Below the pieces are notes generated by a model. It was not told the DNA's origin. It did not search any database and saw nothing but the letters and a program-made list of their open reading frames with translations. This document shows positions 5,412 through 63,052 of a DNA stretch of 64,000 bases, one piece after another (the first letter of the stretch is position 1; each line of letters starts with the position of its first letter). The translations under genes were made by a program, and so were the position numbers. Source of the stretch: Candidatus Bathyarchaeota archaeon (GTDB lineage: Archaea; Thermoproteota; Bathyarchaeia; TCS64); the NCBI GenBank assembly GCA_018652685.1, contig JABIBQ010000080.1:8357-72356 (forward strand), written 5' to 3'.

Positions 5412-5459
5412 CTAGACATTATGGGGTAAACTCGGCAGGGGATTATTAAAACAATTAGC

Positions 5460-6404: not shown

Positions 6405-6452
6405 GAATACACCTTTCGGAATGTAAAGGCACGAGGCTAGTTATGAATATCG

Positions 6453-19986: not shown

Positions 19987-20522
19987 GCCTCTATTATTTT
20001 TATTAGCTGCTCAAGCATGCGGAAGGTGAGTCCCCAGACAACCTCTCCGTCATACTTGTAAACGTCGCTGTTCCAACCCTTGACATCCTGTTTGGTCCTT
20101 GACTGGACCAGCTCGCTCAGAGGGGCCCAAAGGTATCTTGTAAGCTCGTAATTGAGGCTCACCTCGGGCTCCTCGTCATAGACATACACTATTGGCTGGA
20201 CTTTCATGTTTGTGCGGACGCTGCTGAATATTGGCTTCATGTAACCCAGCTTTGATTTCTCACGGAGATCGATTGCGGTCTCCTCAAGTACCTCGCGAGA
20301 GGCAGTTTCCACCAGGTCTCTGTCATCGTCCCCCCTTTTACCACCAGGGAAGGCCATGTCCCCGCTCCACGGGTCACCCTCGACCTCTGCCCTCTTGACA
20401 AGGAAGAACTCCAGATCGTCGTTGCGCTCCCTGAGGAGTATGGCTACTGCTGCATGTGAGCTCTCCTCCGGTCCATCGAGAAGTTTTCCCCGAAGGCTTG
20501 ATAGTTTCTCATTTGCCCGCAA
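19983..20522 (-). CDS. NUDIX hydrolase (CoA pyrophosphatase-like)
   Basis: Nudix box GGKRGDDDRDLVETASREVLEETAI. The ORF track extends to 20678, which would overlap the divergent mrp gene. TTG 20522 and GTG 20600 are plausible starts, so the start is uncertain. Confidence 0.7.
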   Translation of the reverse strand: MRANEKLSSLRGKLLDGPEESSHAAVAILLRERNDDLEFFLVKRAEVEGDPWSGDMAFPGGKRGDDDRDLVETASREVLEETAIDLREKSKLGYMKPIFSSVRTNMKVQPIVYVYDEEPEVSLNYELTRYLWAPLSELVQSRTKQDVKGWNSDVYKYDGEVVWGLTFRMLEQLIKIIEA

Positions 20523-20704
20523 CGGTGTTCCGTATCTGTGAATGCTCAGGGTATCTAAAATGTTGTGATCAAGTTTGGGAAGACGTAAATAGCATCGCAC
20601 AAACTCAGGAACAATATTTGGAAGGCAACAGATTGACAGAATCCAAGGACATATCGAACCCCTTCGAGCAGAAGGCAAAGCAACAGGAGCTAATCAAGGA
20701 GAAG

Positions 20705-21475
20705 ATGGCCAACGTGAAGCACAAGATAGCCATAATCAGCGGAAAGGGAGGAGTAGGAAAGACCCTCGTTACTGTGAACCTCGCTGCTGCACTAGCAAAG
20801 GGCAGGAAGGGAAAGGTGGGTATACTGGACGCAGATCTCACGGGGCCTTGCGTCCCCAAGATGATGGGTCTGAAGGGCCACAAGATGGAGCTAGGGGCCT
20901 CTGGGATAATGCCAGCTAGGGGATCAGAGGACATCGCCGTGGTCTCCATGGACTTCCTGCTTCCTGACGACGAGGCCCCTGTCATCTGGCGTGGCCCGCT
21001 AAAGATGGGTGCGATCAGGCAGTTCCTCGGTGAAGTAGCCTGGGGTGACCTTGATTACCTGCTCATAGATCTCCCACCAGGCACCGGGGATGAGAGCCTC
21101 AGCGTCCTGCAGCTGTTACCTGAGCTGTCCGGCGTTATCATAATCACTATCCCAAGCGAGGTGAGTCAGGCGGTGGTGAAGAAGGCTGTGACCTTCGCCC
21201 GTCAGATGAAAGTTCCAATACTCGGAATCGTCGAGAACATGAGTGGGCTTGTCTGCCCCCACTGCGGAGAGGTCATCAACGTCTTCAGCAAGGGAGGAGG
21301 GGCCAAGGTCTCGAAAGAGATGGGTGTAGAACTCATAGGGAGTATCCCCATGGATCCTAAGGTCGCATTGGATAGCGACAATGGTGTGCCATTCATCTAC
21401 TCTCATCCCGATTCCCCTGCAGCTGAAGCCTTCAAAGTCGTGGTCGAGAGAATTGAGGGACAAGTGAAGAAATAA
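20705..21475 (+). CDS. Mrp/NBP35/ApbC-family Fe-S cluster carrier ATPase
   Basis: Motifs KIAIISGKGGVGKT, LLIDLPPGTGDE and CPHCGEVINVF. ATG 20705 or TTG 20633 is the likely start; the ORF-track start at 20456 is implausible. Confidence 0.85.
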   Translation: MANVKHKIAIISGKGGVGKTLVTVNLAAALAKGRKGKVGILDADLTGPCVPKMMGLKGHKMELGASGIMPARGSEDIAVVSMDFLLPDDEAPVIWRGPLKMGAIRQFLGEVAWGDLDYLLIDLPPGTGDESLSVLQLLPELSGVIIITIPSEVSQAVVKKAVTFARQMKVPILGIVENMSGLVCPHCGEVINVFSKGGGAKVSKEMGVELIGSIPMDPKVALDSDNGVPFIYSHPDSPAAEAFKVVVERIEGQVKK

Positions 21476-25622: not shown

Positions 25623-27422
25623 TTAGGCTTTCTGCTCAGGAGGATTTGGGTCAACCCAGCTGAACTTTTTCTCAAGGGTTGCGCTGTAATAATTACGCCA
25701 ATCGTACTCCACCTTCTTACCCCACTCGAAGTAGACACGTGGGTCCACGTAGCTCTTGAGGCTAGTCCCCAGGTTATAATCCTTGGTCATCTCTTTGGCC
25801 TTGATCTGCAACCCAGCCTTCTCGATACCTTCCTTGTCCTTATGCTGCCGGGTCGCCATCCGCTCTTTGAGCTTTGCTATCGCGTCCCTGTGCTTCTGTT
25901 TGGTCTCCCTGATGCGCTTCCTGCCGTTCTTAATGACATTCTTCTTGCTGGCAATTCGGTTCTTGACGCCCTTCACCGCTTTCTCGGCCTTCTCCTTCAC
26001 AACCAACTCCGCCTTGTATTCAACAAGCTTGGCCTTGTCCGTCTCCAGCTTTGCCTCGTACTTTGCGACGCGATCGATGTACCTCTTATTGGTGTCCTTG
26101 ATGCGTTGCTTGTACTTCTTGATGTTTTCTCTGGCCCTCTGCTTCCTGGTCTTGAGGCGTTCCTTCTGGCGACCCAGGCTTTCTGCCCACGAAGCTGAGA
26201 TCGCCCTCTTGTGGTTACACGTCATGGCAGCCTCCAAGTTGGCAATCGTTGCAACGTGTTTCTTGTAATAATCAGGGGCATTGTCCGGAATATTCATGGA
26301 CTTGAGCTTGGATTGCACCGCATCGGTAGCGTGGCAAGTCCTGAAGACCTTGGCGGAGATTCCCTCCATGACCTCGTCAAGGAACTCGCTTACGACGCTG
26401 CTATTTACCTCGCTGAACAGGGGACCGTCCTTGCTGGCGCCCATAAACTCCTGGAGGTTAGCGGTTATCTGGTTGTCCAGCTTTGCGGTGAGTACCAGCC
26501 TGATACTGTCCTTTCCTAGGAAATCGAATGTAACCGAGCCGTCCTCGTTGACACAGATGTGCTCTGCCCTGAGGCTTGAGGCCCCGACCGTGTCCGCCTC
26601 CTCGGCCTCGTCCTTCTCGTCGCCAACCCTGAATTTTAAATCGTTGATGAGGTAGCAGACCGTAGCGGTCTTTCTCCGCTTAACCGTCTCGTCCACGAGA
26701 TTTGCCTTGATGTGATTCCTGATCTTTCTCAGGTTCTTCCTCAACTCGATGGCCTTGTTGAACTTGGCTATCTCGGTTTTCTGCTTGACGGGGCTGCTGT
26801 CGTGTGGCCAGACGTACTTCATCTTCTCAGTCAACTTGTCCTTCCACTTAGCGACCCAGATGCTATCTGGGTCCCAGTCCACCCTGAGCCAGTCACCCTC
26901 TGGAAGGGGAACATCCCTGCTGTGGTTAAGTATGACATCATTGTGCCTGGGGCCCTCCTTCCACTTGCCCCTGAAGGGGTGTTCGCCCCTTCCCATGAAT
27001 ATGCTGCTAGGCTCAACCATGTAGTTGCCCAGCTCGCATCGGTCGCCGTCGATGATCGCGTAGCCGTACTTTTCCTTGTTGGCCTCGCGGATCACCTTTC
27101 TTTCCGCCGCGAGGAGTTTCTTCTCCTCACGTGGTAACGCTTTCTTGAACTCTCTTTCGGCTACCACGTCGGCGTATATTTCTGAGTAATCTACGTCAAC
27201 ATGCCGAATCTTCTCTCCCATTAACTCGCTGAGGCCGTTGTGGAAATTCTTTTTGAAAACAGGGTCATCCACGTAGGGAGTTCCGATTTTCTTCGCCCAA
27301 GCAACGATACGCTCCTCCTCGACTGGCTTAAGTTTACGTAGTTCTCCTTTGATTATCACTGAATACCCCCTTGGTTCGTATATAGGAGGTACCATGACGC
27401 CGTTATGATGCATTGATTCCAT
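25623..27422 (-). CDS. Eukaryote-type DNA topoisomerase IB
   Basis: 599 aa. HNGVMVPPIYEP aligns to the human TOP1 core. All five catalytic-pentad contexts are visible (FRVGDEK, FDFLGKDSIR, AKVFRT, TCNHKR, LGTSLKSYVDPR). The Tyr codon is at 25749-25751. A long Lys/Glu-rich coiled-coil linker precedes it. Confidence 0.9.
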   Translation of the reverse strand: MESMHHNGVMVPPIYEPRGYSVIIKGELRKLKPVEEERIVAWAKKIGTPYVDDPVFKKNFHNGLSELMGEKIRHVDVDYSEIYADVVAEREFKKALPREEKKLLAAERKVIREANKEKYGYAIIDGDRCELGNYMVEPSSIFMGRGEHPFRGKWKEGPRHNDVILNHSRDVPLPEGDWLRVDWDPDSIWVAKWKDKLTEKMKYVWPHDSSPVKQKTEIAKFNKAIELRKNLRKIRNHIKANLVDETVKRRKTATVCYLINDLKFRVGDEKDEAEEADTVGASSLRAEHICVNEDGSVTFDFLGKDSIRLVLTAKLDNQITANLQEFMGASKDGPLFSEVNSSVVSEFLDEVMEGISAKVFRTCHATDAVQSKLKSMNIPDNAPDYYKKHVATIANLEAAMTCNHKRAISASWAESLGRQKERLKTRKQRARENIKKYKQRIKDTNKRYIDRVAKYEAKLETDKAKLVEYKAELVVKEKAEKAVKGVKNRIASKKNVIKNGRKRIRETKQKHRDAIAKLKERMATRQHKDKEGIEKAGLQIKAKEMTKDYNLGTSLKSYVDPRVYFEWGKKVEYDWRNYYSATLEKKFSWVDPNPPEQKA

Positions 27423-29865: not shown

Positions 29866-31479
29866 ATGGTTTTACCCGATGATCTATGCGCCGATCTGGC
29901 GTTTTTAAATGGAAAAGTGTTCACCCTTGACGGCCATGGTCGAACAGTACAGGCCGTCTCGGTGAGGAACGGGAAGATTTTGCAAGTTGGTTCAGACGAA
30001 CACGTGAAAGAGTCAACGGGCGACAGGACCAAGATAGTTGACCTGAACGGCATGACGATGCTCCCTGGACTCATCGACAGCCACATGCACCCTGGCGGGA
30101 GCTGGGGGGCTTATCTGATCAGGGGCGTCGCGTGTGGACCGCATTTCAACTCCGTCGAGGGGATGCTTGAAGCCATCAGGGAAAAAGTCCAGGATACTCC
30201 CCCTGGGAACTGGGTCCTCGGGTATCGGATGGATGACGTTAAGATGGGGCGGTACCCCACGAGGGGGGAGCTAGACGAGGTTTCCCCGGAGAACCCCCTC
30301 TACGTCCAGAGAAGGGATGGTCATAACGGGGTGGCCAACAGCCTGGCACTTGCAGAGGCTAACATAACAAGGGACACCCCGGACCCCCATCATGGTAAGA
30401 TCGAGAAGGACGCGGACGGCGAACCCAACGGACTGCTGAGGGAGACCGCAAAGGACATGGTCTACCACATCATGCCCCCGTACAGTTTCGATGAGTTCTA
30501 CAAAGGGCTCCAGATAGTGTTCGATGAATGCATCAGCCTGGGACTCACCAGCATCCACGCCAGCATGGTGAGCCCGTTGGAGTTCAAGGCCATGCAGAAA
30601 CTGAAGAAGAATGGAAAACTGGGTATCCGGGTAGCTGTCCACATCAGCGGAAGGGACGAGGGCATGGTGGAGGGGGCGATAGCCGCAGGAATACTAACAC
30701 CTTTCGGGGACGACTGGCTCAAGATCACCGAGGCGGAGTGGGTCTTCGATACCAGCACAAGCGGCAGGACTGCAGCCTACTACGAGCCATACGTCGGCGA
30801 ACCAGACAACACCGGGATTCTCCTGTACGACCAGGATGACATCGAGAGGCGGGTCTGGGAGGCCCATGAGGCGGGAATCAGGGTCGGATTGGACGGTGTA
30901 GGAGACAGGGGCATCGATAGATCGCTGGACGCCATCGAGAAGGCTCTGGAGAAGCAGCCAAGAGAGGACCACAGGCACAGGATCGAGCACTGCTGCTACG
31001 TTACCCCTGCGATACAAGACAGGTTACTCAAGCTGAACGTGATTGATGCATCTGCAACCGGGTTCCACCACGACCTTGGAGACGCCTACAAGACCAACAG
31101 GGGCGAGGAGGCCATGAAGTACATGTGGCCTCACAGAACTCTCATCGACAGGGGTATCCCTGCACCTGGCCACAGCGACGCCAGTATCTGCGACGCCAAC
31201 CCGTGGCTCGCCATTTACAGCATGGTAACGAGAAAGACCAGCAGTGGGGACGTCCTCTACGCGCCTGAGGGCGTGAAGCCATTGGAGGCAATCAAGGCAT
31301 ACTCCATTGACGGAGCATACGCCGCGTGGGAGGAAGACATCAAGGGAACCATCGAGCCCGGCAAGCTAGCGGACATGGTGGTCGTTGACAGAGACCCAAC
31401 GGGGATAGAGCCCGATGAGATCAGGAACATCAAGAATCTGATGACTATTGTGGCGGGAAGAATAGTTTACGAGACCTAA
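29866..31479 (+). CDS. Amidohydro_3-family metal-dependent hydrolase (YtcJ-like)
   Basis: 537 aa. Motifs LPGLIDSHMHPGG, a central HA...IEHC region, and C-terminal GHSDA and DMVVVDRDP. Confidence 0.8.
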   Translation: MVLPDDLCADLAFLNGKVFTLDGHGRTVQAVSVRNGKILQVGSDEHVKESTGDRTKIVDLNGMTMLPGLIDSHMHPGGSWGAYLIRGVACGPHFNSVEGMLEAIREKVQDTPPGNWVLGYRMDDVKMGRYPTRGELDEVSPENPLYVQRRDGHNGVANSLALAEANITRDTPDPHHGKIEKDADGEPNGLLRETAKDMVYHIMPPYSFDEFYKGLQIVFDECISLGLTSIHASMVSPLEFKAMQKLKKNGKLGIRVAVHISGRDEGMVEGAIAAGILTPFGDDWLKITEAEWVFDTSTSGRTAAYYEPYVGEPDNTGILLYDQDDIERRVWEAHEAGIRVGLDGVGDRGIDRSLDAIEKALEKQPREDHRHRIEHCCYVTPAIQDRLLKLNVIDASATGFHHDLGDAYKTNRGEEAMKYMWPHRTLIDRGIPAPGHSDASICDANPWLAIYSMVTRKTSSGDVLYAPEGVKPLEAIKAYSIDGAYAAWEEDIKGTIEPGKLADMVVVDRDPTGIEPDEIRNIKNLMTIVAGRIVYET

Positions 31480-31689
31480 GGCCAAACTCGGGAAAAAATC
31501 CCCGCCTTGCCTGCCATTGGTACTCAAATGGACTTGATTATACGCATAAGATGTGCCCTTTACCATAAATTAGGTAACCGGCAAAGCAAGGTGATAGTTT
31601 AAAAGCAACCACATGGATAAGTCGGCGTCTCCCTGACACATTGACAATCAATGATTGCCATTGTTTTCCTTCCAGACAGGGAGATATTC

Positions 31690-32460
31690 TTATCGGATAA
31701 CTGGCGTAGCCTTGGCCCAGTACTTCTCGTATAGGTCCTTGGCCCAGATATGCACTTGCGGGTCCTCGCTGACGAAGCCCCTGTAATCCATCCTTCCCTC
31801 GTTGGTGGGGAACCCAATCGCAGCCACCTTGCTCTCGTTGAGGGCCAGGAAAACGTTCACCTTGTCTGTCTTCCTTACCTGGAACTGCCCGCGATTAACG
31901 GCGTCCGCTATCACGGTGCCCCTATCGAACTCAGGGGGTACCACAATATCAGTTGGTTCAAGGAGCCTGAACTCTACACCCCGGGTCAGGGCATCTTCCC
32001 ATGCAGGTATGGCCGTGAGGATGTACTTGTCGGTGAGCCTGTAGATGTACTCCTGGGACTCCCTACCCATCTGCTCGATGAGGTGGAATATCACCATGAT
32101 GTCGTCGATGAACCTCGCCTCCCCAAGCTCCCCTATCCTCGACACGAACTCGGGGGGTATGCCAGTAAGGTCGTGGGTCTGGAAATAGGCTCTGTGGTTA
32201 CTGGTAAACATGAAGCCCTCGATCTGGGTCAGGGAAAGCTCGCCGTACCCGGTGAGGCTGTGGGTTCCGTTTGGATTCTTTTTAGTCAATCCCGTCTCCC
32301 CTAGCCTAGCCAGGTGTCTACTGGTCTCCTGGGTTGTGAGATCAAGCTCCCTGCTGAGGGCGGTGACCGTCATGTGGTCCTGCTGCAAGCGTTTGAGTAT
32401 GCGCAGTCTATCCTCGTTGCTGAACTCGAAGAACAAGGCACAGAGGCTTTCAATTGACAT
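31690..32460 (-). CDS. ArsR-type winged-helix regulator with DUF1724-like C-terminal domain
   Basis: 256 aa. N-terminal wHTH (NEDRLRILKRLQQDHMTVTALSRELDLTTQETSRHLARL). Confidence 0.7.
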   Translation of the reverse strand: MSIESLCALFFEFSNEDRLRILKRLQQDHMTVTALSRELDLTTQETSRHLARLGETGLTKKNPNGTHSLTGYGELSLTQIEGFMFTSNHRAYFQTHDLTGIPPEFVSRIGELGEARFIDDIMVIFHLIEQMGRESQEYIYRLTDKYILTAIPAWEDALTRGVEFRLLEPTDIVVPPEFDRGTVIADAVNRGQFQVRKTDKVNVFLALNESKVAAIGFPTNEGRMDYRGFVSEDPQVHIWAKDLYEKYWAKATPVIR

Positions 32461-32552
32461 GGAACATATCTCCTATTTTTTCATCATTGATATTATTATC
32501 CCTAAATCATTCATGCAATGGGGTTAAACGGGTTTCCCTACAACACTGACTC

Positions 32553-32780
32553 ATGAGACACAGTTTCTCCGTTCAGATGAGTTCCACCGAGAGCGTATCG
32601 GATCTGGTGATAAACAGGAAGAAGGACAGGCTATTCATCGAAGGCGAGCTGGGGAAGATCGAGGAGGTGGAGTACATCGAGGGCAAGGTTCTTACAATCA
32701 CTGGCGAGAACGGTGTTCTCAGGATTGACATATGCAGGGAGACCCTGCAAAACGCGTTGACCCCGAAAGGAAAAACCTAG
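32553..32780 (+). CDS. Small hypothetical protein
   Basis: 75-aa ORF divergent from the ArsR-type regulator, with no motif recognised. Coding status is uncertain. Confidence 0.35.
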   Translation: MRHSFSVQMSSTESVSDLVINRKKDRLFIEGELGKIEEVEYIEGKVLTITGENGVLRIDICRETLQNALTPKGKT

Positions 32781-32822
32781 GGTTATGTACTTCAACGAAT
32801 ACTGATCATGCAGTAAAAATCG

Positions 32823-33917
32823 GTGATTGAATTGAAGAGACCATTTGACTGGAAAATCTTGACCATCATCATGGCAGCATTCATCATTCTCATCGTGATG
32901 AACACATGGGCGGAAACAGACACTCCCCCAGAGGCCGCAGATCTTTCAGGTTACTGGCCGACGGACGGCTGGAAGTACGCCACACCAGAGCAGATGGGTT
33001 TGGATCCCAAGCCGTTGCAGGACATGGTCGATACCATCGAGTCAAGCTCGTTTAGCGTGGACAGTGTTATGGTCATCAAGGACGGATACGTCGTGCTTGA
33101 CGAGTACTTCGGCGGTTACGAGAAGGGAGAGCAACACATCATATACAGCTGTACCAAGAGCGTCGTATCCACAATCTTCGGAATCGCCCACGATAACGGA
33201 TTGATACCGGACCTTGACACAATGCTTCGTGTTATCTACCCGGATATAATCCCAGAGAATCCTGGAGATTGGAAGAACTCCATCACCCTCAGGGATCTCC
33301 TCATGATGTCAGGAGGTTTTGACGCGAGGGACAGCTGGCTCTACCAGTGGGAGGGTCTTGACGGGCTGCACGAGGCTGATGATGCTGTTGAGTACATGCT
33401 GGACCTGCCCATGAATTTTGAGCCGGGAAGCCGGTTCGAGTACACAAACGGGGTCAGTCACCTCCTCAGCTGCATCATTACCGAGCAGACAGGGGTTTCG
33501 GCAGCCGAGTACGCGGAAGAGCACTTGTTCGGTCCGCTGGGCATCAACGATTATACGTGGGAGGCCGACTCCCAGGGAAGGAACTGGGGTGACACCAGGA
33601 TATACTTCAATCCACACGACATGGCCAAGATAGGCTTCCTTTTCCTCAACTACGGGGAGTGGGACGGTGAGCAGGTTATCTCAGAGGAGTGGGTCAGGGA
33701 GGCCACGACACATAGAATCGACGCCAACATACTGGATGGGTACGGCTACCAGTGGTGGGTCGGGGATGGGTATTATCTTGCATTGGGCTACCAGGGGCAG
33801 TTCATTTTTGTCTACCCCGAGCATGATTTGATAATCGTCTTTACCAGCAGTTCACCGGAGACCTTTGATTACGCCATCAACCTACCTAATAAGTACGTTT
33901 TACCCGCGTTGGACTAG
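32823..33917 (+). CDS. Beta-lactamase/PBP-like serine hydrolase (class C-type fold), membrane anchored
   Basis: 364 aa with a GTG start, an N-terminal TM, an SxxK motif (SCTKS) and a YxN motif (EYTNG). Confidence 0.75.
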   Translation: MIELKRPFDWKILTIIMAAFIILIVMNTWAETDTPPEAADLSGYWPTDGWKYATPEQMGLDPKPLQDMVDTIESSSFSVDSVMVIKDGYVVLDEYFGGYEKGEQHIIYSCTKSVVSTIFGIAHDNGLIPDLDTMLRVIYPDIIPENPGDWKNSITLRDLLMMSGGFDARDSWLYQWEGLDGLHEADDAVEYMLDLPMNFEPGSRFEYTNGVSHLLSCIITEQTGVSAAEYAEEHLFGPLGINDYTWEADSQGRNWGDTRIYFNPHDMAKIGFLFLNYGEWDGEQVISEEWVREATTHRIDANILDGYGYQWWVGDGYYLALGYQGQFIFVYPEHDLIIVFTSSSPETFDYAINLPNKYVLPALD

Positions 33918-54735: not shown

Positions 54736-55683
54736 ATGGACCCAGTAGTCTACGCCGAGGCAGCGTTCAGACACCCATTGAAGGCTGAGAAAGGGGATAG
54801 AGCCCTCATAGTTTACGAGGCGGACAGGTACAAGATGGCAGAGCCATTCATTGGGGCGGCCAAGACTCTGGGCCTTGAGACACTTCTGGTTAGGCTTCCA
54901 GCGCCCGACCAAGCGAGATTAGGGATTGAGGAAGAAATTCGCGAGACAATCAAATCGTTCAAACCGGATACCTGCGTCAACGTCATCCGTTACAGGGATA
55001 CCGAGACGAGTTTCAGATCCGAGTTGCTTGCAACAGAGAGACTTTCAGTTAAGACCGTCGGCCACAGCCCGGGAGGCACACCTGACATGTTTATCGACGG
55101 CGGCCTCGCGTTGACAGACGATAACTACTTTGAGATGTACTCCTGGATGGACAATCTTGTAGCTCAAACCAAAGGGGCTGACAGCGTCCACATCACCGCC
55201 CCAAACGGCACTGATTTCACGGTCGGTCTCAGGGACAGCTTCTTCAGACCCGAGACGATGAACCTGCCAACTGGTCAGGTGAGCTGCGTCCCTCCCGAGA
55301 CGGGTACACTTGATGGTAGAATTGTCTGCATCCACGGCGGCACTGGGGCGATGAGGCTTGATGCCCCGGTTGTCCTAGATGCCGTGAAAGGCTCAGTAAA
55401 TTCGATTGATTGCAACGACCCTGAGCTACTGGAAATGGTTTCAACCGAGTTCAACAGGGACCTGGGGGCTCGGATGACCAACGAGATCGGTATCGGAGCG
55501 AACAGGATGGCAAAGGTCAGGATGAACCCCCTTGACGCCGAAAAGAACAGGGGCTCCATCAGCATCGGATTCGGCGGTCCACACAACGACTCCGTGGCAC
55601 AGCTCAACCTCCTGATCCCCAGGGCCACCGCTGTGATAACCAGGAATGGCGTGGAGACCACCATCGTATCCCCTACCCACTAG
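54736..55683 (+). CDS. M29 (aminopeptidase T/S)-like protein
   Basis: 315 aa. Blocks NLPTGQVSCVPPE..DGRIV, EIGIGAN and DAEKNRGSISIGFG resemble M29 signatures. Confidence 0.55.
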   Translation: MDPVVYAEAAFRHPLKAEKGDRALIVYEADRYKMAEPFIGAAKTLGLETLLVRLPAPDQARLGIEEEIRETIKSFKPDTCVNVIRYRDTETSFRSELLATERLSVKTVGHSPGGTPDMFIDGGLALTDDNYFEMYSWMDNLVAQTKGADSVHITAPNGTDFTVGLRDSFFRPETMNLPTGQVSCVPPETGTLDGRIVCIHGGTGAMRLDAPVVLDAVKGSVNSIDCNDPELLEMVSTEFNRDLGARMTNEIGIGANRMAKVRMNPLDAEKNRGSISIGFGGPHNDSVAQLNLLIPRATAVITRNGVETTIVSPTH

Positions 55684-55720: not shown

Positions 55721-56908
55721 TTGGACAAGATGGTGAATGAGACTAAAAGCAACAGGCTCATCCTGCCATCGCTTCTCATAGCGACGCTGAGCACCTACCC
55801 ACCGTCAATCGTGGCCTCGGTGCTGCTCACGGAGATCAGTAAAGATCTTAACGTCCCCATCGGGATCGGCGGACAGATCAGGACAGCCGCCAGCATGGTC
55901 GCGTTCATCGGCAGCATCGCGATGACGTTCATAGCGGCCCGGTACAATTACAAGCGCCTCCTCACGGTTGGGCTCCTAGTGATAGCCGCCTCGGCTGTGA
56001 CCAGCAGCCTTGCCCCCAGCTTCTCCGTGCTGCTCCTGTCAACGGTTCTGACGGGGGCGGGCATGGCAATAGTGGTACCCATGACAACGACCCTCATCGC
56101 GGAGTACTTCCCGCTAGCCGAGCAAGGGCGGGCCATGAGCCTCCTCGGGGTAGGAGGCGGCTTTGGGTTCCTGTTAGGTGGGACGATAGTAGGGCAACTA
56201 GCCGCAGTCGGTGGCTGGAGACTCGCATATATCGGGTTTGCGGGGACTCTTGGTGCGCTTGGATTGATAATCACTTATTTTACCCTCCCGGACACGGAGA
56301 ACAAGGGAGTAAAGGATATTACATCCGGGGTACGGGAGATCGTATCAAATAGGAGCGCCATCGGTTGCCTCGTGAGCAACCTCCTCGCATCGGCTGGCAT
56401 CCAGGGGGTCTACTTCTGGTGCTTCAGCTTCATCAAGGAGACATTCCAGACAAGCACGGTGCAGACGGGATACATCTTCACCGGTACGGCGGTTATGTTC
56501 ATCACTGGTAGCTACCTGACATCCCGCGTCCTCTCCAGACTAGGGCCGAAGCTCACTGTCACACTTGGGTTGATTGGCACCAGCGTATGCACTGTGGTGT
56601 ACAACATCTCACCCACGTTATCAATTGCAACCGTAGCCATACTTACTGGCAACCTCCTCGATTCATTCAGGTACAACGCCCACAACACCCTCAGCCTCGG
56701 ACAGACCGAGTCAAAGGGCTCCATGATGAGCCTCCACAACGCTGCGTCAAACCTCGGCTACTCCATTGGGAGCGCACTTGGGGTCTTACTGCTGGTGTCC
56801 AACTGGCTGACACTGGGCACGATACTGACGGCCATGTCCCTCACTGCTGCAGCAACGATACTGGCAGTCGTCAAACTGCCAGACTCAGAAATCGTATTAG
56901 ACCAATAA
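55721..56908 (+). CDS. MFS transporter
   Basis: 395 aa with a TTG start and 12 TM helices. Confidence 0.75.
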   Translation: MDKMVNETKSNRLILPSLLIATLSTYPPSIVASVLLTEISKDLNVPIGIGGQIRTAASMVAFIGSIAMTFIAARYNYKRLLTVGLLVIAASAVTSSLAPSFSVLLLSTVLTGAGMAIVVPMTTTLIAEYFPLAEQGRAMSLLGVGGGFGFLLGGTIVGQLAAVGGWRLAYIGFAGTLGALGLIITYFTLPDTENKGVKDITSGVREIVSNRSAIGCLVSNLLASAGIQGVYFWCFSFIKETFQTSTVQTGYIFTGTAVMFITGSYLTSRVLSRLGPKLTVTLGLIGTSVCTVVYNISPTLSIATVAILTGNLLDSFRYNAHNTLSLGQTESKGSMMSLHNAASNLGYSIGSALGVLLLVSNWLTLGTILTAMSLTAAATILAVVKLPDSEIVLDQ

Positions 56909-56916
56909 AAGTGGGA

Positions 56917-58080
56917 TTACTCCCAGAACTTTTCAGGGGGCACCTGTTTTCCGTAGCCCATGAAGTCATCAGACCAGGCCCAGAACTTGTTCAGCGCGGG
57001 CACATTACGGATGAACCACTTGACCACGTCGTGGTGTAAACCAGGCTTCTTGTTGAACGAGCAGACCCTGAAGCAGATGCCGCACCCTGATTCGACCACG
57101 CTCCAGTGGTCAAGGCATCCCTCGGCGTCCACGTACCACTTGAGTGCTCCGGGGTTGTTGGCGTCACTCACGGTCTCGTAGCTGCGCCTTCCGCTGGATA
57201 TTGATTGACTCGGGCACATTTCTGCACATTTCTTGCAGTCCTCGCAGAACTCCACAATCCCCCCGGGGGCCATGGCGCTCTGAGCAAGTGGCAGGTCGGT
57301 GAATATCTTGAGTATCCTGCACATGCTTCCATGCTTCCAAGTAATGAGCCTGCCATGTCTACCTAGATGTCCAAGACCTGCCTGAATGGCCATAGGGACA
57401 CTCACAGCTGTGTCATTTCCGCAGGGGACGGCGTGGTACCCGAGGCCCCTGATGAACTCGGCCACCATCCCACCGAGGATATGCATTTGGCTGTATCCAA
57501 GGCCTGAAACGGACTCGGTTGCCGATGGCGTATGCATGAAGTTCTCCAGATCCATGGGGACCGTCAACACGATGACCCATTTGTGGCTCTCCGGGATGAC
57601 CGCCTTCTCTTCGGTGGTGTACCCCTCCTCCACGTCCTCAAAGACGATGGGCTTGCCGTACCTGGTGTGGCTGTAGACCCATCGCTTGTCAAGAGGCGTG
57701 AACCCAGTGTCCCCTGCACCGTAGAACTTACACGCCTTGCGCACTGCCTTTGCCGCTTCTTCTGGAGTTGACTCCCATTTACCTACCCCGGGATACTTCT
57801 TGGCCTTCCCGAGGCTCTGCCACTTGTAAAACCCCTTATCCTGGGTATGGCTCTCCCCGAAAGGCGTCTCGTACATCCCTGCTGCGTCGTGGAACGCATA
57901 ATCAAGCAAGCTGAACCCCTTCCTACCTGATAGTATCCTGCCCGCCCTGGACTCCAGAGAGGTGAACTGAAGCAGTTTGCCCGTCTTCTTGAATGCCTGG
58001 CCGAACGCGGTATCCCTCGCGTCGAACCTCTCGTACTCGTCCTTAACGGGGTACAGCTCGTCAAAGGATTTCTTGGCCAT
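56917..58080 (-). CDS. Reductive dehalogenase-family protein (RdhA-like, no TAT signal, no RdhB partner)
   Basis: The likely start is ATG 58080 (GTG 58089 is possible). Blocks FYGAGDTGFTPLDKRWVYSH and GLGHLGRHGRLIT...IFTDLPL, and two Fe-S motifs: CEDCKKCAEMCP and C-x10-CGICFRVC. Confidence 0.7.
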   Translation of the reverse strand: MAKKSFDELYPVKDEYERFDARDTAFGQAFKKTGKLLQFTSLESRAGRILSGRKGFSLLDYAFHDAAGMYETPFGESHTQDKGFYKWQSLGKAKKYPGVGKWESTPEEAAKAVRKACKFYGAGDTGFTPLDKRWVYSHTRYGKPIVFEDVEEGYTTEEKAVIPESHKWVIVLTVPMDLENFMHTPSATESVSGLGYSQMHILGGMVAEFIRGLGYHAVPCGNDTAVSVPMAIQAGLGHLGRHGRLITWKHGSMCRILKIFTDLPLAQSAMAPGGIVEFCEDCKKCAEMCPSQSISSGRRSYETVSDANNPGALKWYVDAEGCLDHWSVVESGCGICFRVCSFNKKPGLHHDVVKWFIRNVPALNKFWAWSDDFMGYGKQVPPEKFWE

Positions 58081-58088
58081 TTTAATCA

Positions 58089-59471
58089 CTAGAACACGAT
58101 GTGGTGCTTGATGCGTTTAGCCGCATCAGCGACATGGCTCACAACCGCCTCGGCGTCAATGGTCGGGAAGGTACCGTTGTCGTATACCATTTTCCCGTTT
58201 ACCATGGTCCAGACCGTGTCCCTGCCTCCTGAGCCCGCGTATACGAGGGTCTCTAGCGGCTCGTAGAGCGGCGTCAGGAAGTGGTTGCCCTTGATCTTTA
58301 CGGCTGTGAGGTCGGCCAGCTGTCCTGGTTGTACAGTGCCCAGATCGTCGTGCCCTAACATCTTTGCGCCGGTTACAGTTGCCATCTTGAACGCGTCAAG
58401 GTGGCTCACCGCGTCGGCCTTCATCTTATTAATCCTCTGGAGGAGGACAGCCTGCCTCATGTCCCTGTACATGTCCAGGCTATCGTTCTGGGGGGCACCG
58501 TCAGTGCCTATCCCGACGTCCACGCCTTTCTCCAGTAGTTCAACAAGTGGTAACACGCCGATTGCACATATCTGGTTACAGCTTGGCATATGTGAAATGC
58601 TTGCTCCTGTCTCCTTGACCATGTCCATCTCGGCCTCGGCCATCCAGATACAATGGGCCAGGCTCGTCCTCTCATCAAGTATGCCTAAGTTGTAAGCCAT
58701 TGCAACGCTCCCAACGTAACCTGTGTCTCGCTGGACTATCTTGATCTCCGGTGATGTACCCGCCCAGTGGAGATGGTAACGAGTATCGTAGTCATCTGCC
58801 ATCTTCTTGAGCTCGACAAGTGCCTCGTTTGTGCATCCACCGACTGTTCTCTTGCCGCCTGATGGGCCGACCCATGCCTGGACAAGGTCGTCCGGTTTCT
58901 CCTTCTTCCATGCATCGAGGAAAACTTTCGTCTCCCCGAGCTCCTGGGCCATGTCCTTGCCCACGTGTCCCTGGTCGATGGTGCTGAAGTCCTCGGCTCC
59001 CTTGGCTATGGCTCCCCTGAGCCCGAACTCGTGGAGGGCGTGGGCCATGGTTAGGCTGTGGCGTTTTGCGAAGTTGACGCTGTGTTCAATAAGGGCCGTA
59101 GAGCCGCTGCTGGCGGCCTCCATGGCGGTGATAAGGGTCAGCGACCTGTACAGCTCCTCGCCCTCGTCCTCCATTGCCTTGGCCGTGGGGAAGACTAGCC
59201 TGTCACACCACTCGTGGAACGGGAAATCATGGCCCAATCCACGCATCATAGTCTCGTGGATGTGGGTGTGAGTGTTGATGAGCCCGGGTAGGATAGCCTG
59301 ACCCGTGCAGTCACGTTCCTCGTCGATGATGTGGTCAGCCTTTAGTTTCTCGTAAGGGCCTACATCGATTATCCTGTCGCCTTTGATCAGCACCGAATAT
59401 TTCTCGTTGATAATGGACGCGCCTTGAATGACATAGTCAGCGTCCCTAAGAACCAGCGTTTTATCGCTCAT
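58089..59471 (-). CDS. Amidohydro_1-family hydrolase (TRZ/ATZ chlorohydrolase / MtaD-type deaminase group)
   Basis: The likely start is ATG 59471. Motifs ILPGLINTHTHIHE, a central HL.W/HC region, and C-terminal GTDG and LADLT. Confidence 0.8.
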   Translation of the reverse strand: MSDKTLVLRDADYVIQGASIINEKYSVLIKGDRIIDVGPYEKLKADHIIDEERDCTGQAILPGLINTHTHIHETMMRGLGHDFPFHEWCDRLVFPTAKAMEDEGEELYRSLTLITAMEAASSGSTALIEHSVNFAKRHSLTMAHALHEFGLRGAIAKGAEDFSTIDQGHVGKDMAQELGETKVFLDAWKKEKPDDLVQAWVGPSGGKRTVGGCTNEALVELKKMADDYDTRYHLHWAGTSPEIKIVQRDTGYVGSVAMAYNLGILDERTSLAHCIWMAEAEMDMVKETGASISHMPSCNQICAIGVLPLVELLEKGVDVGIGTDGAPQNDSLDMYRDMRQAVLLQRINKMKADAVSHLDAFKMATVTGAKMLGHDDLGTVQPGQLADLTAVKIKGNHFLTPLYEPLETLVYAGSGGRDTVWTMVNGKMVYDNGTFPTIDAEAVVSHVADAAKRIKHHIVF

Positions 59472-59589
59472 GCTGTATCTCCTGCGGTTCGCGTATTTGA
59501 AACCAACTGGATGAACTCTACACACGGATATTATCCGGTCACGTTTCTGTACATACGCAGATTATTCACCCTTGAAACTGGGTGAAGCC

Positions 59590-60831
59590 TCAGGGGCCCT
59601 CTTTTGGCTTCAATAATAGAAGGATGAGCAAGGTACCAACAGTGTTCATCAGGAAACTCGCGTAGAATGGGGCTTCGGGTGAGACATTGTCGGTGAGGTA
59701 GCCACCCACATAACTAGCCGGCGTACCGATGATGCTCACGAAAGTACCCATGAGGCCCATCATCCTGGCCCTCCCCTCGGCTGGAGTCATGTCGGCCACC
59801 AGTGCCTGCCAGACGGGGCCACCCCTGACCCTCATGAAAGTCCCGCCAAGGCCGGAACCGATGCTGCCTGTAACTCGGAAAGCCCCCAGTGTGAGCACAC
59901 TACTGCTCAGGGGGATTCCGATAGTGCTGAGGCTTGCTATGACCCTGCTAATGATCACTGTCTGTTTCCGGCCTATCCTATCACTGAGCACTCCACCGGG
60001 GAGGGTCAGGAACAGGGAAACCATACTCACGACTGTGCTGATAGCCCCGTACTCGGTCTTGGAGAGCCCCATGACGTTGATAACATATGGAACCGTGAAG
60101 CTGAAGACCATCCTTACAGAGAAGGAGCTGAGCCCGGCGACGACGGTTAACACCCACGCTTCCCTTGGCATCGACCCGAGTTCACGGATGCTACCAAGAT
60201 TGAGATCTAATTGTGTGTCCTTTCTCGCGTCAGGAAGCAATGTCTCTTCGAGGAATAACCAGTAGACCACGGCACTGAGAGCGGACATCCCGATTACCCC
60301 TGTTAATACCACTCTTACGCCTGGTATGACGCCGAAATGATCCATTATCATGCCACCGACGATACCAGAAAACACGTTTGGTATCTTCCCTACGAAACTT
60401 ATCGCCGCAAACCCGGCCCCCCGTTTATCAGTGGGTAGGCTTTCCGCGATCAAGGCGTTCATGGCGCCCCTGCTCAGAGATGCGGCCGAGGAGAGTATCA
60501 TCGCTGGTGCCAATTGAATCCATTCCCCTGCGAACAGGTAGATGAGGGGTGCCCCAAAGCTAAGAACAGCCGCGGCGATGATGACCCGCTTCCTGCCGTA
60601 CCTATCAGCAAGTACGCCCCCCGGGATCTGGAAGAACATCCCACCCAGGGTCTCCACCATCACAAGCAGGCCGAGGATCTCATTTGTCGCCCCCAACTCA
60701 AGGATAAAGAGGCTCTTATACGGCCACCAGAGCCAAGCGAGGAACATGCTCAGGGTCTGGGTGAGCATGACGATTACGATATTTCGGTTATCAAGGAACT
60801 CGCGTACGCCCTGGAGTGACACAGTTAACAC
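59590..60831 (-). CDS. MFS transporter
   Basis: 413 aa with 12 TM helices and motif GGVLADRYGRKR. Confidence 0.8.
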   Translation of the reverse strand: MLTVSLQGVREFLDNRNIVIVMLTQTLSMFLAWLWWPYKSLFILELGATNEILGLLVMVETLGGMFFQIPGGVLADRYGRKRVIIAAAVLSFGAPLIYLFAGEWIQLAPAMILSSAASLSRGAMNALIAESLPTDKRGAGFAAISFVGKIPNVFSGIVGGMIMDHFGVIPGVRVVLTGVIGMSALSAVVYWLFLEETLLPDARKDTQLDLNLGSIRELGSMPREAWVLTVVAGLSSFSVRMVFSFTVPYVINVMGLSKTEYGAISTVVSMVSLFLTLPGGVLSDRIGRKQTVIISRVIASLSTIGIPLSSSVLTLGAFRVTGSIGSGLGGTFMRVRGGPVWQALVADMTPAEGRARMMGLMGTFVSIIGTPASYVGGYLTDNVSPEAPFYASFLMNTVGTLLILLLLKPKEGP

Positions 60832-60879
60832 GGGTATGACTGGTATAAAAAATGGGCTTGATGTGGACTAGATGGCCAA

Positions 60880-62058
60880 TCAGGACGGGTCTTCCCGTAT
60901 AGCCCAGACCGAGTAGACGGCGTTCAAGGACAGTGCGATGACCACGAACCATATGCTGACACCCGACCCCATGGTCTGGTATAGGTACCCTACTGTCGGC
61001 GTCGAGATCAGGCCTCCGATGTTCTCTGCCTCTGAGTACAGCCCCATGATTAACCCTGAGCGATCCTTGCTCATCACAGAGATGAGGTGGAGCATCATGC
61101 TGGTATCTGCTGCGGCCCAGCTCAATCCCTGCAACACCCCGACGAAGTACATGAGGTAGATTCCACCAGTGTACATGAGTGCTAGGTAGCTTGTAACCCA
61201 TCCCAGGAGCGACGCGATTATGAGCTTCTTGTTTCCAAGCCGGTCACAGAGGTCTCCCAGGATCGACCGCCCAGCTGCTCCTGCAAATCGGAATATACTG
61301 AAGAATGCGCCTATCTGTGACTCTGATGCGGCATAGATGGGGGACTCGTTGAGAAATACTGGGAGGAAGTTATGGAGAAAGCCCATGTTGAAGAAGAATA
61401 AACCTCTGACGCTAAAGATCCTGAGGATTGGCCCAGTCAGGATACTCCTCAGGTCGCCGAACCCGTTTCCCGTTGATTTTGATTCAGGTTCCTCGTACTT
61501 GATCGAAAACACAGCAAACATACCCACGAGCCCTATTGCGGCGGCTATGTAGAAGGGAAGGTCATACCCGAAGACCTCCGAGATGTATCCACCGATTAGT
61601 GGGCTAACCATGCCACCGAAACCGATTACTGACATGTATCTGCCATATGCCTTACCACGATCCTCTGACGGGAGCAGTTCCGCGGTCAATGCCTTCATCG
61701 GTATGCTGTACGCCGACATGATGCTTGTCTTCAGGAACTCCAGGACCATAAAGAAACCCAGCCCAGTCGCCATCGGGTAGACACCGTAGAGGATAGTAGT
61801 AAGCAGCAGGGAGCCAGCCAACATCCACCGTTTGTTCCACCTGTCTGCTATAACCCCCATGAACGGCTCCCATATGAACCACCCCAGCATCGATGCGGTG
61901 CCAAGGAGCCCAATCTGGGCCAAGGTTAGCCCTTGGCTGCGGACGAATAGGCTCAGGATGGGTGATATAATGCCCCCACGGAAGTTTGTGGTGAGCTGTA
62001 CGATCATGAGCATCAACAGCGAACGCTGCCTGTCCAAGGGTTTAGCCATGACCATCAA
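60880..62058 (-). CDS. MFS transporter
   Basis: 392 aa with 12 TM helices and motif GVIADRWNKR. Confidence 0.8.
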   Translation of the reverse strand: MMVMAKPLDRQRSLLMLMIVQLTTNFRGGIISPILSLFVRSQGLTLAQIGLLGTASMLGWFIWEPFMGVIADRWNKRWMLAGSLLLTTILYGVYPMATGLGFFMVLEFLKTSIMSAYSIPMKALTAELLPSEDRGKAYGRYMSVIGFGGMVSPLIGGYISEVFGYDLPFYIAAAIGLVGMFAVFSIKYEEPESKSTGNGFGDLRSILTGPILRIFSVRGLFFFNMGFLHNFLPVFLNESPIYAASESQIGAFFSIFRFAGAAGRSILGDLCDRLGNKKLIIASLLGWVTSYLALMYTGGIYLMYFVGVLQGLSWAAADTSMMLHLISVMSKDRSGLIMGLYSEAENIGGLISTPTVGYLYQTMGSGVSIWFVVIALSLNAVYSVWAIREDPS

Positions 62059-62095
62059 AAACGAGTGGTCGGCTTAAAAAAGGTGTTAATATAAA

Positions 62096-63052
62096 CTAGG
62101 CGACTTGTGGAACTAGCTCGGCAGCGTCAACGTGGACCTTTTCGAGGGCGTTCTTGAGACCTCTGTACCTGTTCCTCAGTGTAACCTCTGTGGTCCCTGC
62201 CGCTTTCGCTATGACCCTTTGGACGCGCTTCTCGCCCGTCTCCTGGCAGGCCATGTATAGGGCAGCCGCGGCTAGACCCCTTGGGTCCTTGCCTGTCAAC
62301 TCCCTCATCTCGTCGGCCTTTCTAAGGATCCTGATGGCAGTCTGCTCGGTTAGCTGGGTCACCTTGAGGTGTCCCGCGATGCTGGGCACGAACTTGTAGG
62401 GCCCGTCTACCGGCGGCCTGAGCTTTAGCTCCCTGTGGAGTAGCCTGTATGTCATGGCCACCTCGCTGTGTAGCCGTTTGCTGGCCTTGCTGACTTCCTT
62501 AAGTGGTCTGGGTATGCCCATAACCCTGCATGCGGCGTAGATGCTGGCGGCAACGAACGCGTCGATGCTCCTTCCTCGAATGAGGTCTTTCAGCAGTGCC
62601 TTCCTGTAGATGAGGGCGGCGTTCTCCTTGACGCTCCTCGGCAGATGCAGATCGCTTGTGAGCCTGTCAAGCTCAGCCATGGCGATGCTCAGGTTCCTTG
62701 CGTGTGTCTCGTTTACCTTGCTCCTGTTGTCCTGGCGCTGGAGCCTCCGCATCCTGCGCTGAGTCTCAAAGTCCAGTCGTTTCCCTGAGGCGTCCTTGTC
62801 TCCCTTGATGACCGTTGATAGGCCCTTGTCGTAGATGCTGTAGCTGTAGCCTGTCCCTGTCCTTCTTCTGTCGTTTTCCTGCAGGTTGAATACTCTGTAC
62901 TCGGGGCCGAGGTCCACGATGATATCAGTTACCACTAGACCACATGAAGCGCAGACACGTTCCCCCGTCTGTCTGTCGTTCACTATTTTGCTGCCTCCGC
63001 AGTGGGGGCAATTGGACGCAGTGTCCTCGTTTTCTATATTTACTCGGTTCAC
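62096..63052 (-). CDS. tfb: Transcription initiation factor IIB (TFB)
   Basis: 318 aa with a GTG start preceded by GGAGG. Zn ribbon CPHCGGSKIV...RVCASCGLVV, a B-finger/linker and two cyclin-fold repeats. Confidence 0.92.
   Translation of the reverse strand: MNRVNIENEDTASNCPHCGGSKIVNDRQTGERVCASCGLVVTDIIVDLGPEYRVFNLQENDRRRTGTGYSYSIYDKGLSTVIKGDKDASGKRLDFETQRRMRRLQRQDNRSKVNETHARNLSIAMAELDRLTSDLHLPRSVKENAALIYRKALLKDLIRGRSIDAFVAASIYAACRVMGIPRPLKEVSKASKRLHSEVAMTYRLLHRELKLRPPVDGPYKFVPSIAGHLKVTQLTEQTAIRILRKADEMRELTGKDPRGLAAAALYMACQETGEKRVQRVIAKAAGTTEVTLRNRYRGLKNALEKVHVDAAELVPQVA

Follow-up and report, generated by a model that had tools for sequence, protein, structure and literature searches.

The 64,000-nucleotide (nt) stretch of contig JABIBQ010000080.1 from a Candidatus Bathyarchaeota archaeon (assembly GCA_018652685.1, positions 8,357 to 72,356 of the forward strand), which is called the window throughout, harbors an open reading frame (ORF) with similarity to the reductive dehalogenase RdhA. 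On the same strand, a gene for an amidohydrolase and two genes for major facilitator superfamily (MFS) transporters lie upstream of it. This arrangement raises the question whether the ORF encodes a true member of the RdhA family and which of the genes beside it belong to the same pathway. By itself, the RdhA is a further member of an already known Bathyarchaeia family; what is new is that only this RdhA orthologue group is coupled to a previously unrecognised amidohydrolase subfamily, and that this subfamily departs from ordinary MtaD in its active site. The reading that we favour, with about as much confidence as doubt, is that the two genes form a leaderless catabolic or salvage operon which acts on a halogenated amino-N-heterocycle, is non-respiratory and does not include the MFS genes. 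That the amidohydrolase and RdhA act in one pathway at all is more probable than this full statement. The window is archaeal, as it encodes TFB (62096-63052, identified in a Pfam scan of the window ORFs) and the closest relatives of its RdhA are found in Bathyarchaeia metagenome-assembled genomes (MAGs).

The ORF encodes a genuine RdhA-family protein. It scored 226.9 bits against TIGR02486 (cutoff 160.35) and 65.8 bits against PF13486 (cutoff 24.3), whereas the QueG equivalog model TIGR00276 matched residues 229-299 only and reached 48.6 bits against a cutoff of 200. Sequence matches in the PDB were PceA (8q4h, E-value 7.7e-54, and 4uqu, 3e-51), NpRdhA (1e-13, 53.9 bits) and QueG (2e-5). When an AlphaFold2 model of the protein (pLDDT 83.9, pTM 0.87) was subjected to Foldseek, query TM-scores (TMq) of ~0.76 to PceA (E-values 1e-23 to 1e-25), 0.66 to NpRdhA and ~0.3 to QueG were obtained. 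Hidden Markov model scoring and structural comparison thus both place the ORF with the RdhA core, as an initial annotation of this DNA had proposed, and identity as QueG is excluded by profile scores as well as by fold. The sequence blocks GAGDTGFTPLDKRWVYSH and GLGHLGRHGRLIT, which that annotation had quoted as family features, and the two iron-sulfur motifs that it had listed were found in the ORF by direct reading.

The active site is that of a PceA-type enzyme (Table 1). Besides Y196, N222 and R255, the alignment to PceA (4uqu) pairs W326 with Trp376. Among 29 RdhA family members, N222 and R255 never vary and at least 90 % keep Y196, so that together with W326 all four positions are invariant or nearly so; the eight cysteines of the two [4Fe-4S] motifs are invariant in the same set. 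Judged from the conserved core common to PceA and RdhA, the protein would bind a corrinoid. The family comprises proteins of 387-390 amino acids (aa) with more than 1300 matches, and Bathyarchaeia MAGs carry several copies, at times in tandem arrays. The closest relatives of the window RdhA, at 90-91 % identity, come from MAGs that bear the label Candidatus Bathyarchaeota or Bathyarchaeia, and public MAG records already label this Bathyarchaeia family reductive dehalogenase.

The gene directly upstream encodes a divergent COG0402 enzyme. It matched PF01979 with 164 bits and fell below every NCBIfam equivalog cutoff, including those of MtaD, DadD, 8-oxoguanine deaminase, guanine deaminase and SsnA; the best scores were 285 for DadD (cutoff 522), 271 for PRK06038 (cutoff 609) and 217 for 8-oxoguanine deaminase (cutoff 532). 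Identity is at least 51 % inside a subfamily of ~460-aa proteins and then falls to ~31 % to the canonical 430-aa MtaD/DadD enzymes. In an exhaustive search of 1.84 billion representatives clustered at 50 % identity, the whole subfamily was found as one representative (771 bits); the next scores were 492, 465 and 418, and a continuum of more than 33,000 relatives followed near 330 bits. A metagenome scan with an alignment of the amidohydrolase gave, among the matches listed, 80 loci of which nearly all were canonical MtaD-like with ~30 % identity. The protein represents a distinct, small COG0402 subfamily; an ordinary MtaD is excluded by the ~31 % identity, by the equivalog cutoffs and by a glutamate missing from strand 5, and the label MTA/SAH (5'-methylthioadenosine/S-adenosylhomocysteine) deaminase, which JGI gives to its relatives, is probably wrong for the subfamily.

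The AlphaFold2 model of the amidohydrolase (pLDDT 91.7) matched Vcz, MTA deaminases, TrzN and AtzA with TM-scores of 0.87-0.90. By profile and fold, the nearest enzymes are the isocytosine/8-oxoguanine deaminases (3hpa, Vcz 7ww2/8is4), followed by MTA deaminases, TrzN and AtzA. The metal ligands H68, H70, H235 and D324 and the water-orienting H273 are invariant and align to His68, His70, His234, Asp322 and His271 of Vcz, of which the first four bind Zn and His271 orients the water (PMC10481359). In Vcz, Glu237 is the catalytic acid and Gln73 contacts the substrate, and both E237A and Q73A are inactive (PMC10481359). In the window protein Gly238 replaces Glu237, which is kept in 3hpa (HtHlaE), 3lnp (HlhE), 4f0r (HihE) and AtzA (HmaE), and Glu73 sits at the position of Gln73. 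Glutamate occupies this position in 73 of 75 subfamily members, where canonical enzymes carry Met or Gln, and the strand-5 motif of members at least 51 % identical is AG[TN], with a single AAN. In an alignment of 151 sequences (the window amidohydrolase and the 150 best 50 %-identity representatives), the strand-5 glutamate was present in 141, and Gly238 and Glu73 were combined only in the window protein and the representative of its own subfamily. This points to a relocated catalytic acid or to changed chemistry. The HTHIHE motif, taken by the initial annotation as that of the AtzA/TrzA/MtaD group, is therefore a group motif only in part: its HxH is common to the group, whereas its final glutamate is the subfamily's own hallmark and the canonical HxxE glutamate is missing.

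Both the 8 nt gap between the two genes and the 1-base overlap that results from the alternative start GTG 58089, as described in the initial annotation, could be read directly at the junction. It has the sequence ...GTG TTC TAG TGATTAAA ATG, with the amidohydrolase stop at 58091-58089 and the RdhA start at 58080. The corresponding junctions are TAGTGATTAAAATG in the window, TAGTGATCGCCATG in locus L007 and TAGGTGGTAATTTG in loci L003 and L004, with a spacing of 8 nt in all. GTGAT or GGTGGT precedes the RdhA start and overlaps the amidohydrolase stop in the window, L007 and L003, and may act as an internal Shine-Dalgarno (SD) site complementary to the 3' end of 16S rRNA. Upstream of the amidohydrolase, the TATA-like box TTTCAAATA occurs once in the window and is kept at the same offset in L001, L003, L006 and L010; it is positioned as an archaeal TATA box for a leaderless mRNA would be. 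Since the box falls inside the longer alternative ORF that begins with GTG 59525, ATG 59471 is favoured as the start. Co-transcription of the two genes would agree with this layout and with a candidate 3' end behind RdhA (Table 1). A scan with sigma-70 promoter and terminator models, which are ill-suited to archaea, gave counts not above the shuffled expectation.

The pairing was surveyed in 79 genomic loci with RdhA relatives and in several metagenome contigs. Wherever RdhA is at least 74 % identical and its upstream DNA is kept, an amidohydrolase of the window type directly precedes it on the same strand (the window, L001, L003, L004, L005, L006, L007 and L010). Among ~45 Bathyarchaeia RdhA paralogues with 49-63 % identity, no amidohydrolase of the window type was found within 10 kb. 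In L003 both flanks are unlike those of the window, with a second divergent RdhA, a methyltransferase, DUF169 and a xanthine-dehydrogenase-type enzyme, yet the 8 nt junction is kept. A second paired clade (L166/167, L171/172) has an amidohydrolase of 64-65 % identity 19-24 nt upstream of an RdhA of 58-59 % identity; this pair adjoins a Bmp-type ABC importer, a uridine-phosphorylase-like gene (TIGR01718, 233 bits, below the cutoff of 280) and a small HD hydrolase. On a contig labelled Deltaproteobacteria (L170), an amidohydrolase of 55 % identity is placed between two distant RdhA genes. The locus is beyond chance because the dehalogenase model score (226.9 against 160 bits) is combined with the same pair on independent contigs. 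The link between amidohydrolase and RdhA is recurrent, not obligatory.

Other recurrent partners were observed beside RdhA paralogues, namely an M20 peptidase with an α/β-hydrolase, a nitroreductase with a γ-glutamyltranspeptidase, DUF169 and MFS proteins. In seven loci a divergent ArsR/FilR1-type regulator is followed by RdhA, the M20 peptidase and the α/β-hydrolase, and RdhA with nitroreductase and γ-glutamyltranspeptidase occurs in three to four loci. RdhA paralogues also form tandem arrays of two to three genes; these arrays and the two hydrolase modules are found among L016, L026, L028; L017-L025, L031, L032; L029, L033, L034, L038. At L049 (448-3462), a different Amidohydro_1 protein, only 24 % identical and with a glutamate kept in its strand-5 motif (HAGE), is encoded 571 nt upstream of an RdhA paralogue of 51 % identity. 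L086 (3-2763) has two subfamily amidohydrolases in tandem on one metagenome contig, which share 56 % and 76 % identity with that of the window. The Promethearchaeota (Loki-type) subfamily member at L168 (2596-8511) has no RdhA neighbour; its neighbours are an MtmB-like methyltransferase, two corrinoid proteins, a RACo-type reductive activator and a URO-D-like methyltransferase. The assembly DATLAV01 (L014, L027, L044, L049) is labelled 'Patescibacteria group bacterium' and carries at least four Bathyarchaeia-type RdhA paralogues (51-62 %), which suggests mis-binning or a wrong taxonomic label.

It is conceivable that the two enzymes share no pathway at all, that the amidohydrolase is a lineage variant of a housekeeping deaminase (for MTA, 5'-deoxyadenosine or a base) and that its adjacency to RdhA is inherited gene order. 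The JGI label, DadD as the best NCBIfam match, the occurrence of several subfamily members without an RdhA neighbour and the origin of the closely paired loci from fairly close genomes (79-96 % amidohydrolase identity) would all fit such an explanation. We nevertheless consider it unlikely: the protein is far from canonical archaeal MtaD/DadD and under every equivalog cutoff, it is without the catalytic glutamate that such deaminases need, and the pair in L003 has outlived the replacement of both flanks. Furthermore, pairing is found again in the clade of 64 % identity and on the bacterial-type contig with a different RdhA, and the 8 nt junction with its SD-like sequence is conserved. The functional link proposed by the initial annotation thus gained support, since the pair is kept in rearranged contexts and both the second clade and the bacterial-type contig are paired too.

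According to the favoured reading, the two genes would be transcribed as one leaderless mRNA from the TATA-like box 23-31 nt upstream of ATG 59471. The first would encode a COG0402 hydrolase with a mononuclear metal site, the deaminase/chlorohydrolase fold and rewired acid-base machinery, and the second would be translated 8 nt after the stop of the first, behind the SD-like GTGAT, to yield a soluble cytoplasmic RdhA. A low-potential cytoplasmic donor would deliver electrons via the two [4Fe-4S] clusters to the corrinoid in RdhA, which would cleave a carbon-halogen bond by PceA-type Tyr/Arg/Asn chemistry. Both enzymes would act successively on one imported compound, e.g. a halogenated pyrimidine or purine base or nucleoside, with the rewired hydrolase deaminating or hydrolysing the same molecule. 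Once dehalogenated and either deaminated or hydrolysed, the compound would feed into salvage or catabolism, and the reduction might double as an electron sink. Gene structure, family membership, the conserved catalytic residues, the conserved pairing and the amidohydrolase signature are seen in the sequences themselves; corrinoid binding, co-transcription, electron donor, order of the reactions and substrate class are what we infer for the pair. The characterised COG0402 enzymes are, to our knowledge, nearly all active on amidine-type N-heterocycles or related groups, and the nearest solved relatives of the amidohydrolase are isocytosine/8-oxoguanine deaminases, MTA deaminases and triazine hydrolases. 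Because of this substrate range, of the nucleoside genes of the second clade and of the AMP-phosphorylase, RuBisCO and IF-2B-family genes just past TFB in L001 and L006, a halogenated amino-N-heterocycle would be the likely substrate.

Several observations weigh against this reading. The canonical catalytic glutamate of the amidohydrolase is gone, so it is uncertain whether the enzyme deaminates at all. Members of its subfamily occur without an RdhA neighbour (Loki-type L168 and L173/174, L175, Thor-type L169 and L176, and the P0153 contig), which implies that the amidohydrolase also works independently of RdhA. A neighbour-joining tree, which carries no bootstrap values and would fit independent recruitment as well as divergence, does not join the two amidohydrolase-linked RdhA clades as sisters. 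D81 and M253 are the only distinctive residues common to both clades, which lends no support to one specificity or specificity group for both. An inserted gene, intact or decayed, splits the pair in L001, L006 and L010, where RdhA has its own conserved upstream sequence, and tight coupling is thus not universal. The nucleoside-type neighbours belong to the second clade and not to the window, and no corrinoid synthesis or uptake genes were found in the 64 kb window (~55 ORFs against Pfam). Finally, the substrate is deduced wholly from sequence and context, and the promoter, SD site and terminator are predictions from the nucleotide sequence.

The inserted gene is intact-looking in L010 (8436-10000), truncated in L006 (7228-8000), where JGI gives a faint Glycos_transf_2 match, and reduced to a 156-nt remnant in L001 (7842-8000), a series which looks like ongoing gene decay.

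A further question is whether carbon-halogen cleavage is the right reaction for RdhA. In another explanation the pair is linked, and the RdhA homologue performs a different two-electron reduction with corrinoid and iron-sulfur clusters (such as a deoxygenation or an epoxide-type reduction, by analogy with QueG) on an N-heterocycle or nucleoside, while the amidohydrolase carries out a neighbouring step. Reduction of a modified 7-deazapurine nucleoside is the reaction of the sister family QueG, whose model does match part of the window protein (residues 229-299). Such a role would also suit the nucleoside-type importer and the uridine-phosphorylase-like neighbour of the second clade, the proximity of the L003 pair to a xanthine-dehydrogenase-type Mo hydroxylase and DUF169, and the non-canonical active site of the amidohydrolase. 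However, the protein scores far above the dehalogenase cutoff and far below that of QueG, it retains the Tyr/Arg/Asn set of PceA that is tied to dehalogenation, and its fold is much nearer to PceA than to QueG. In addition, one Bathyarchaeota reductive dehalogenase (RDase), of uncertain relation to the window orthologue, is listed as an active dehalogenase (PMC13101508). A reduction other than dehalogenation is accordingly judged quite improbable, and carbon-halogen cleavage is kept in the favoured reading.

The extent of the unit was a further point of doubt, as the initial annotation had taken all four genes for one module of uptake and transformation, in which the two MFS transporters would import the substrate for both enzymes. 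The genes do share one strand and short spacers (48 nt between the MFS genes, 118 nt between MFS and amidohydrolase), MFS genes recur beside Bathyarchaeia RdhA paralogues (neighbour cluster C2, eight loci), and the Thor-type subfamily member L169 has an MFS gene upstream. Nevertheless, each MFS gene, like the amidohydrolase, has a TATA-like box of its own: TTTTTTATA at 60844-60852 for the gene at 59590-60831 and TTTATATTAA at 62086-62095 for that at 60880-62058. Between the MFS genes and the pair, L001 and L006 carry a DUF6144 gene on the opposite strand. The counterpart of the nearer MFS gene is absent in L001 and L003; the farther one keeps its synteny with TFB in L001 and L006 but does not accompany the pair in L003, L166 and L171, where no MFS gene adjoins the pair. 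Moreover, eight MFS genes crowd ~25 kb of the window between 39 and 62 kb (at 39141, 41309, 44892, 46393, 49878, 55721, 59590 and 60880), so that adjacency is expected from density alone and is not specific. On these grounds the four-gene module is not supported, and co-transcription of all four genes as one import-and-transformation unit is judged quite improbable, about as much so as a reduction other than dehalogenation. The functional core is probably the two-gene amidohydrolase-RdhA unit, with the MFS genes outside it. The DUF6144 gene itself (L001 5555-6271 and L006 4941-5678, both on the minus strand) has no NCBIfam match and is absent from the 118-nt spacer of the window.

The cellular place of RdhA is supported to be the cytoplasm and its type non-respiratory. 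No twin-arginine motif was found in the first 60 residues, where the N-terminus is charged and non-hydrophobic, and no membrane segment was detected in the protein (maximum 19-residue hydropathy 0.93). There is no small hydrophobic ORF for rdhB beside the gene and no room for one, because the convergent MFS gene stops 8 nt from RdhA and the amidohydrolase fills the other side; both flanks are thus taken by large genes 8 nt off. These results bear out what had been stated at first, that a twin-arginine translocation (Tat) signal and an RdhB anchor are lacking and that the enzyme is not of the respiratory type. Organohalide respiration, which could appeal to the closer similarity of sequence and fold to respiratory PceA than to NpRdhA, is therefore dismissed as extremely improbable, as the Tat signal, a membrane segment, rdhB and any quinol-linked partner in the neighbourhood are absent and most marine and archaeal RDases are reported without Tat and RdhB (PMC12660952, PMC6737245).

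What deserves attention here is the coupling of one RdhA group to an unrecognised amidohydrolase subfamily, the lost glutamate of the latter and the nucleoside context of the second clade. Genes for the enigmatic Tat-less, cytoplasmic RdhA enzymes are very abundant in anoxic marine sediments, Bathyarchaeia and Asgard archaea. A conserved and tightly coupled partner enzyme narrows the search for the RdhA substrate to amino or halo N-heterocycles, and the nucleoside uptake and phosphorolysis genes of the second clade add concrete compound classes for the pair. A strand 5 without the glutamate that is considered essential in this enzyme group, combined with a glutamate at a substrate-contact position would be a clear rewiring of the active site in a well-studied superfamily. 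In its boldest form, the proposal would be that the pair serves specifically to process halogenated nucleobases or nucleosides, that RdhA is the first RDase specific for halo-pyrimidines or halo-purines, and that the amidohydrolase is a new type of COG0402 enzyme, with its catalytic acid moved from strand 5 (HxxE) to the loop behind HxH (HxHxxE). We regard this version as speculative and, taken as a whole, unlikely; if true, it would reveal one class of natural substrates for the abundant cytoplasmic RDases in sediment archaea. A literature search for 'reductive dehalogenase' with 'halogenated nucleoside' gave no match.

The four genes of the initial annotation were recovered as one same-strand row, with families confirmed by Pfam and NCBIfam, and are listed in Table 1 together with the other features of the locus. 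The convergent MFS gene at the 3' side of RdhA is also present in L006, L007 and L008 (neighbour cluster C8).

Table 1. Positions of genes, active-site motifs and candidate regulatory elements at the amidohydrolase-RdhA locus (window coordinates).
Feature	Position	Strand	Details
RdhA-family reductive dehalogenase homologue	56917..58080	(-)	387 aa from ATG 58080, 390 aa if GTG 58089; PF13486, TIGR02486
Divergent COG0402 (Amidohydro_1) metal hydrolase	58089..59471	(-)	460 aa, ATG 59471; PF01979 6.6e-48
MFS transporter, near neighbour of the pair	59590..60831	(-)	PF07690 7.9e-54
MFS transporter, farther neighbour	60880..62058	(-)	PF07690 2.3e-47
Convergent MFS transporter	55721..56908	(+)	stops 8 nt from the RdhA stop
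RdhA codons of Y196, N222, R255	57316..57495	(-)	equivalents of PceA Tyr246, Asn272, Arg305; residue alignment to 4uqu
RdhA first [4Fe-4S] motif, C279-x2-C282-x2-C285-x3-C289-P290	57211..57246	(-)	direct reading; PF13484 and PF12838 matched
RdhA second cluster motif, C322-x10-C333-x2-C336-x3-C340	57061..57117	(-)	direct reading; aligns with PceA second-cluster Cys
Amidohydrolase H68-T-H70-I-H72-E73 (HTHIHE, residues 68-73)	59253..59270	(-)	HxH ligands and subfamily Glu73; alignments
Amidohydrolase H233-L-H235-W-A-G238	58758..58775	(-)	strand-5 metal ligand, Gly at the canonical HxxE Glu; alignments
SD-like GTGAT, candidate internal ribosome-binding site	58085..58089	(-)	overlaps the amidohydrolase stop, 4 nt before ATG 58080
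TATA-like box TTTCAAATA	59494..59502	(-)	-31 to -23 of ATG 59471; likely promoter of a leaderless amidohydrolase-RdhA transcript
Stem-loop TGGGAGTAATCCCA then CTTTTATTGG, candidate operon 3' end	56902..56925	(-)	overlaps the RdhA stop codon; consensus match only

Apart from this locus, the window contains a cluster for bacillithiol-type thiol biosynthesis in archaeal DNA (885-7145). It encodes BshA (1928-3034; TIGR03999 408.8 bits against a cutoff of 273.7), divergent BshC-like (3657-5411) and BshB/PIG-L-like (6453-7145) proteins, two DinB-family proteins (885-1343, 1434-1883), a thioredoxin-like protein (3073-3660) and an Amidohydro_2 protein (5460-6404). A PF01656 'CbiA' match at 20456-21475 was considered as a corrinoid gene and rejected, as it is a Mrp/NUBPL-type P-loop ATPase. 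A eukaryote-type DNA topoisomerase IB is encoded at 25623-27422 on the minus strand (Topoisom_I_N, Topoisom_I and Topo_C_assoc matched, no NCBIfam match). Genes for an Amidohydro_3 protein (29866-31479), an ArsR/FilR1-type regulator (31690-32460) and a beta-lactamase-family protein (32823-33917) lie together at 29866-33917, and this regulator is of the same family as that found divergent to RdhA paralogues elsewhere. Between 39141 and 62058, MFS genes are interspersed with peptidases (M14, M42 and an M29/NicX-like ORF) and a YbaK/tRNA_edit protein. The ORF with weak M29 or NicX-like matches (54736-55683, plus strand, 315 aa, no NCBIfam match) is kept near the pair in L006 (10398-11345).

In comparison with known systems, the window RdhA is close to RDases described from archaea and marine sediments (Loki- and Thorarchaeota, Bathyarchaeia), with which it shares the architecture, the PceA residues and the proposed cytoplasmic, non-respiratory role. 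Asgard RDases are without Tat and RdhB and conserve the same Tyr, Asn and Arg (PMC6737245), ~95 % of marine RDases are without Tat and RdhB, with Bathyarchaeia named as carriers (PMC12660952), and the Bathyarchaeota RDase A0A523SNE5 is listed among heterologously expressed active enzymes (PMC13101508). The statement of the initial annotation that archaeal RdhA enzymes are essentially uncharacterised is therefore partly outdated, both by the activity listed for A0A523SNE5, an enzyme of uncertain relation to the window RdhA, and by the description of Tat-less and RdhB-less archaeal enzymes. Unlike the window pair, none of the archaeal and marine RDases is described with an amidohydrolase partner in these three papers (PMC6737245, PMC12660952, PMC13101508).

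PceA (S. multivorans 4uqu and the Desulfitobacterium RDH complex 8q4h) is the best match to the window RdhA, with the same iron-sulfur motifs, the same Tyr/Asn/Arg/Trp set and the same core, which binds a corrinoid in PceA. The window protein differs in that it is without a Tat signal and an RdhB partner and is cytoplasmic. It is also shorter, with 387 aa against 464-503; the first ~90 residues are unaligned, and identity in structural alignments is ~27-28 %. In the bromoxynil pathway, a nitrilase is followed by BhbA, which illustrates the catabolic logic of a hydrolase plus an RdhA. As proposed here for the window pair, a hydrolytic enzyme and a non-respiratory RdhA act together in the cytoplasm to break down one halogenated compound, aromatic or heterocyclic. 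However, BhbA, for which PMC13101508 cites Chen et al. 2013, and NpRdhA are fused to a reductase module and distant from the window RdhA (53.9 bits, TMq 0.66), in which no C-terminal reductase module with flavin/NAD and 2Fe-2S domains was found (Pfam shows Dehalogenase and Fer4 only), and the partner hydrolase of the window has another fold (COG0402) than that of the bromoxynil pathway.

For the amidohydrolase, the isocytosine/8-oxoguanine deaminases (Vcz 7ww2/8is4, 3hpa, Pa0142) are the best match, with 245 and 232 bits and TM-scores of 0.88-0.90. The metal ligands and the water-orienting His273 are the same as in the Vcz clade at near-identical numbering, and the HCPxxN motif is similar, whereas Gly238 stands for Glu237, Glu73 for Gln73, and identity is ~25 %. 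MtaD/DadD and AtzA/TrzN, whose names are used by automatic annotation, have the fold and the HxH...H...D metal site in common with the window amidohydrolase; all of them keep the HxxE glutamate that the window subfamily has lost.

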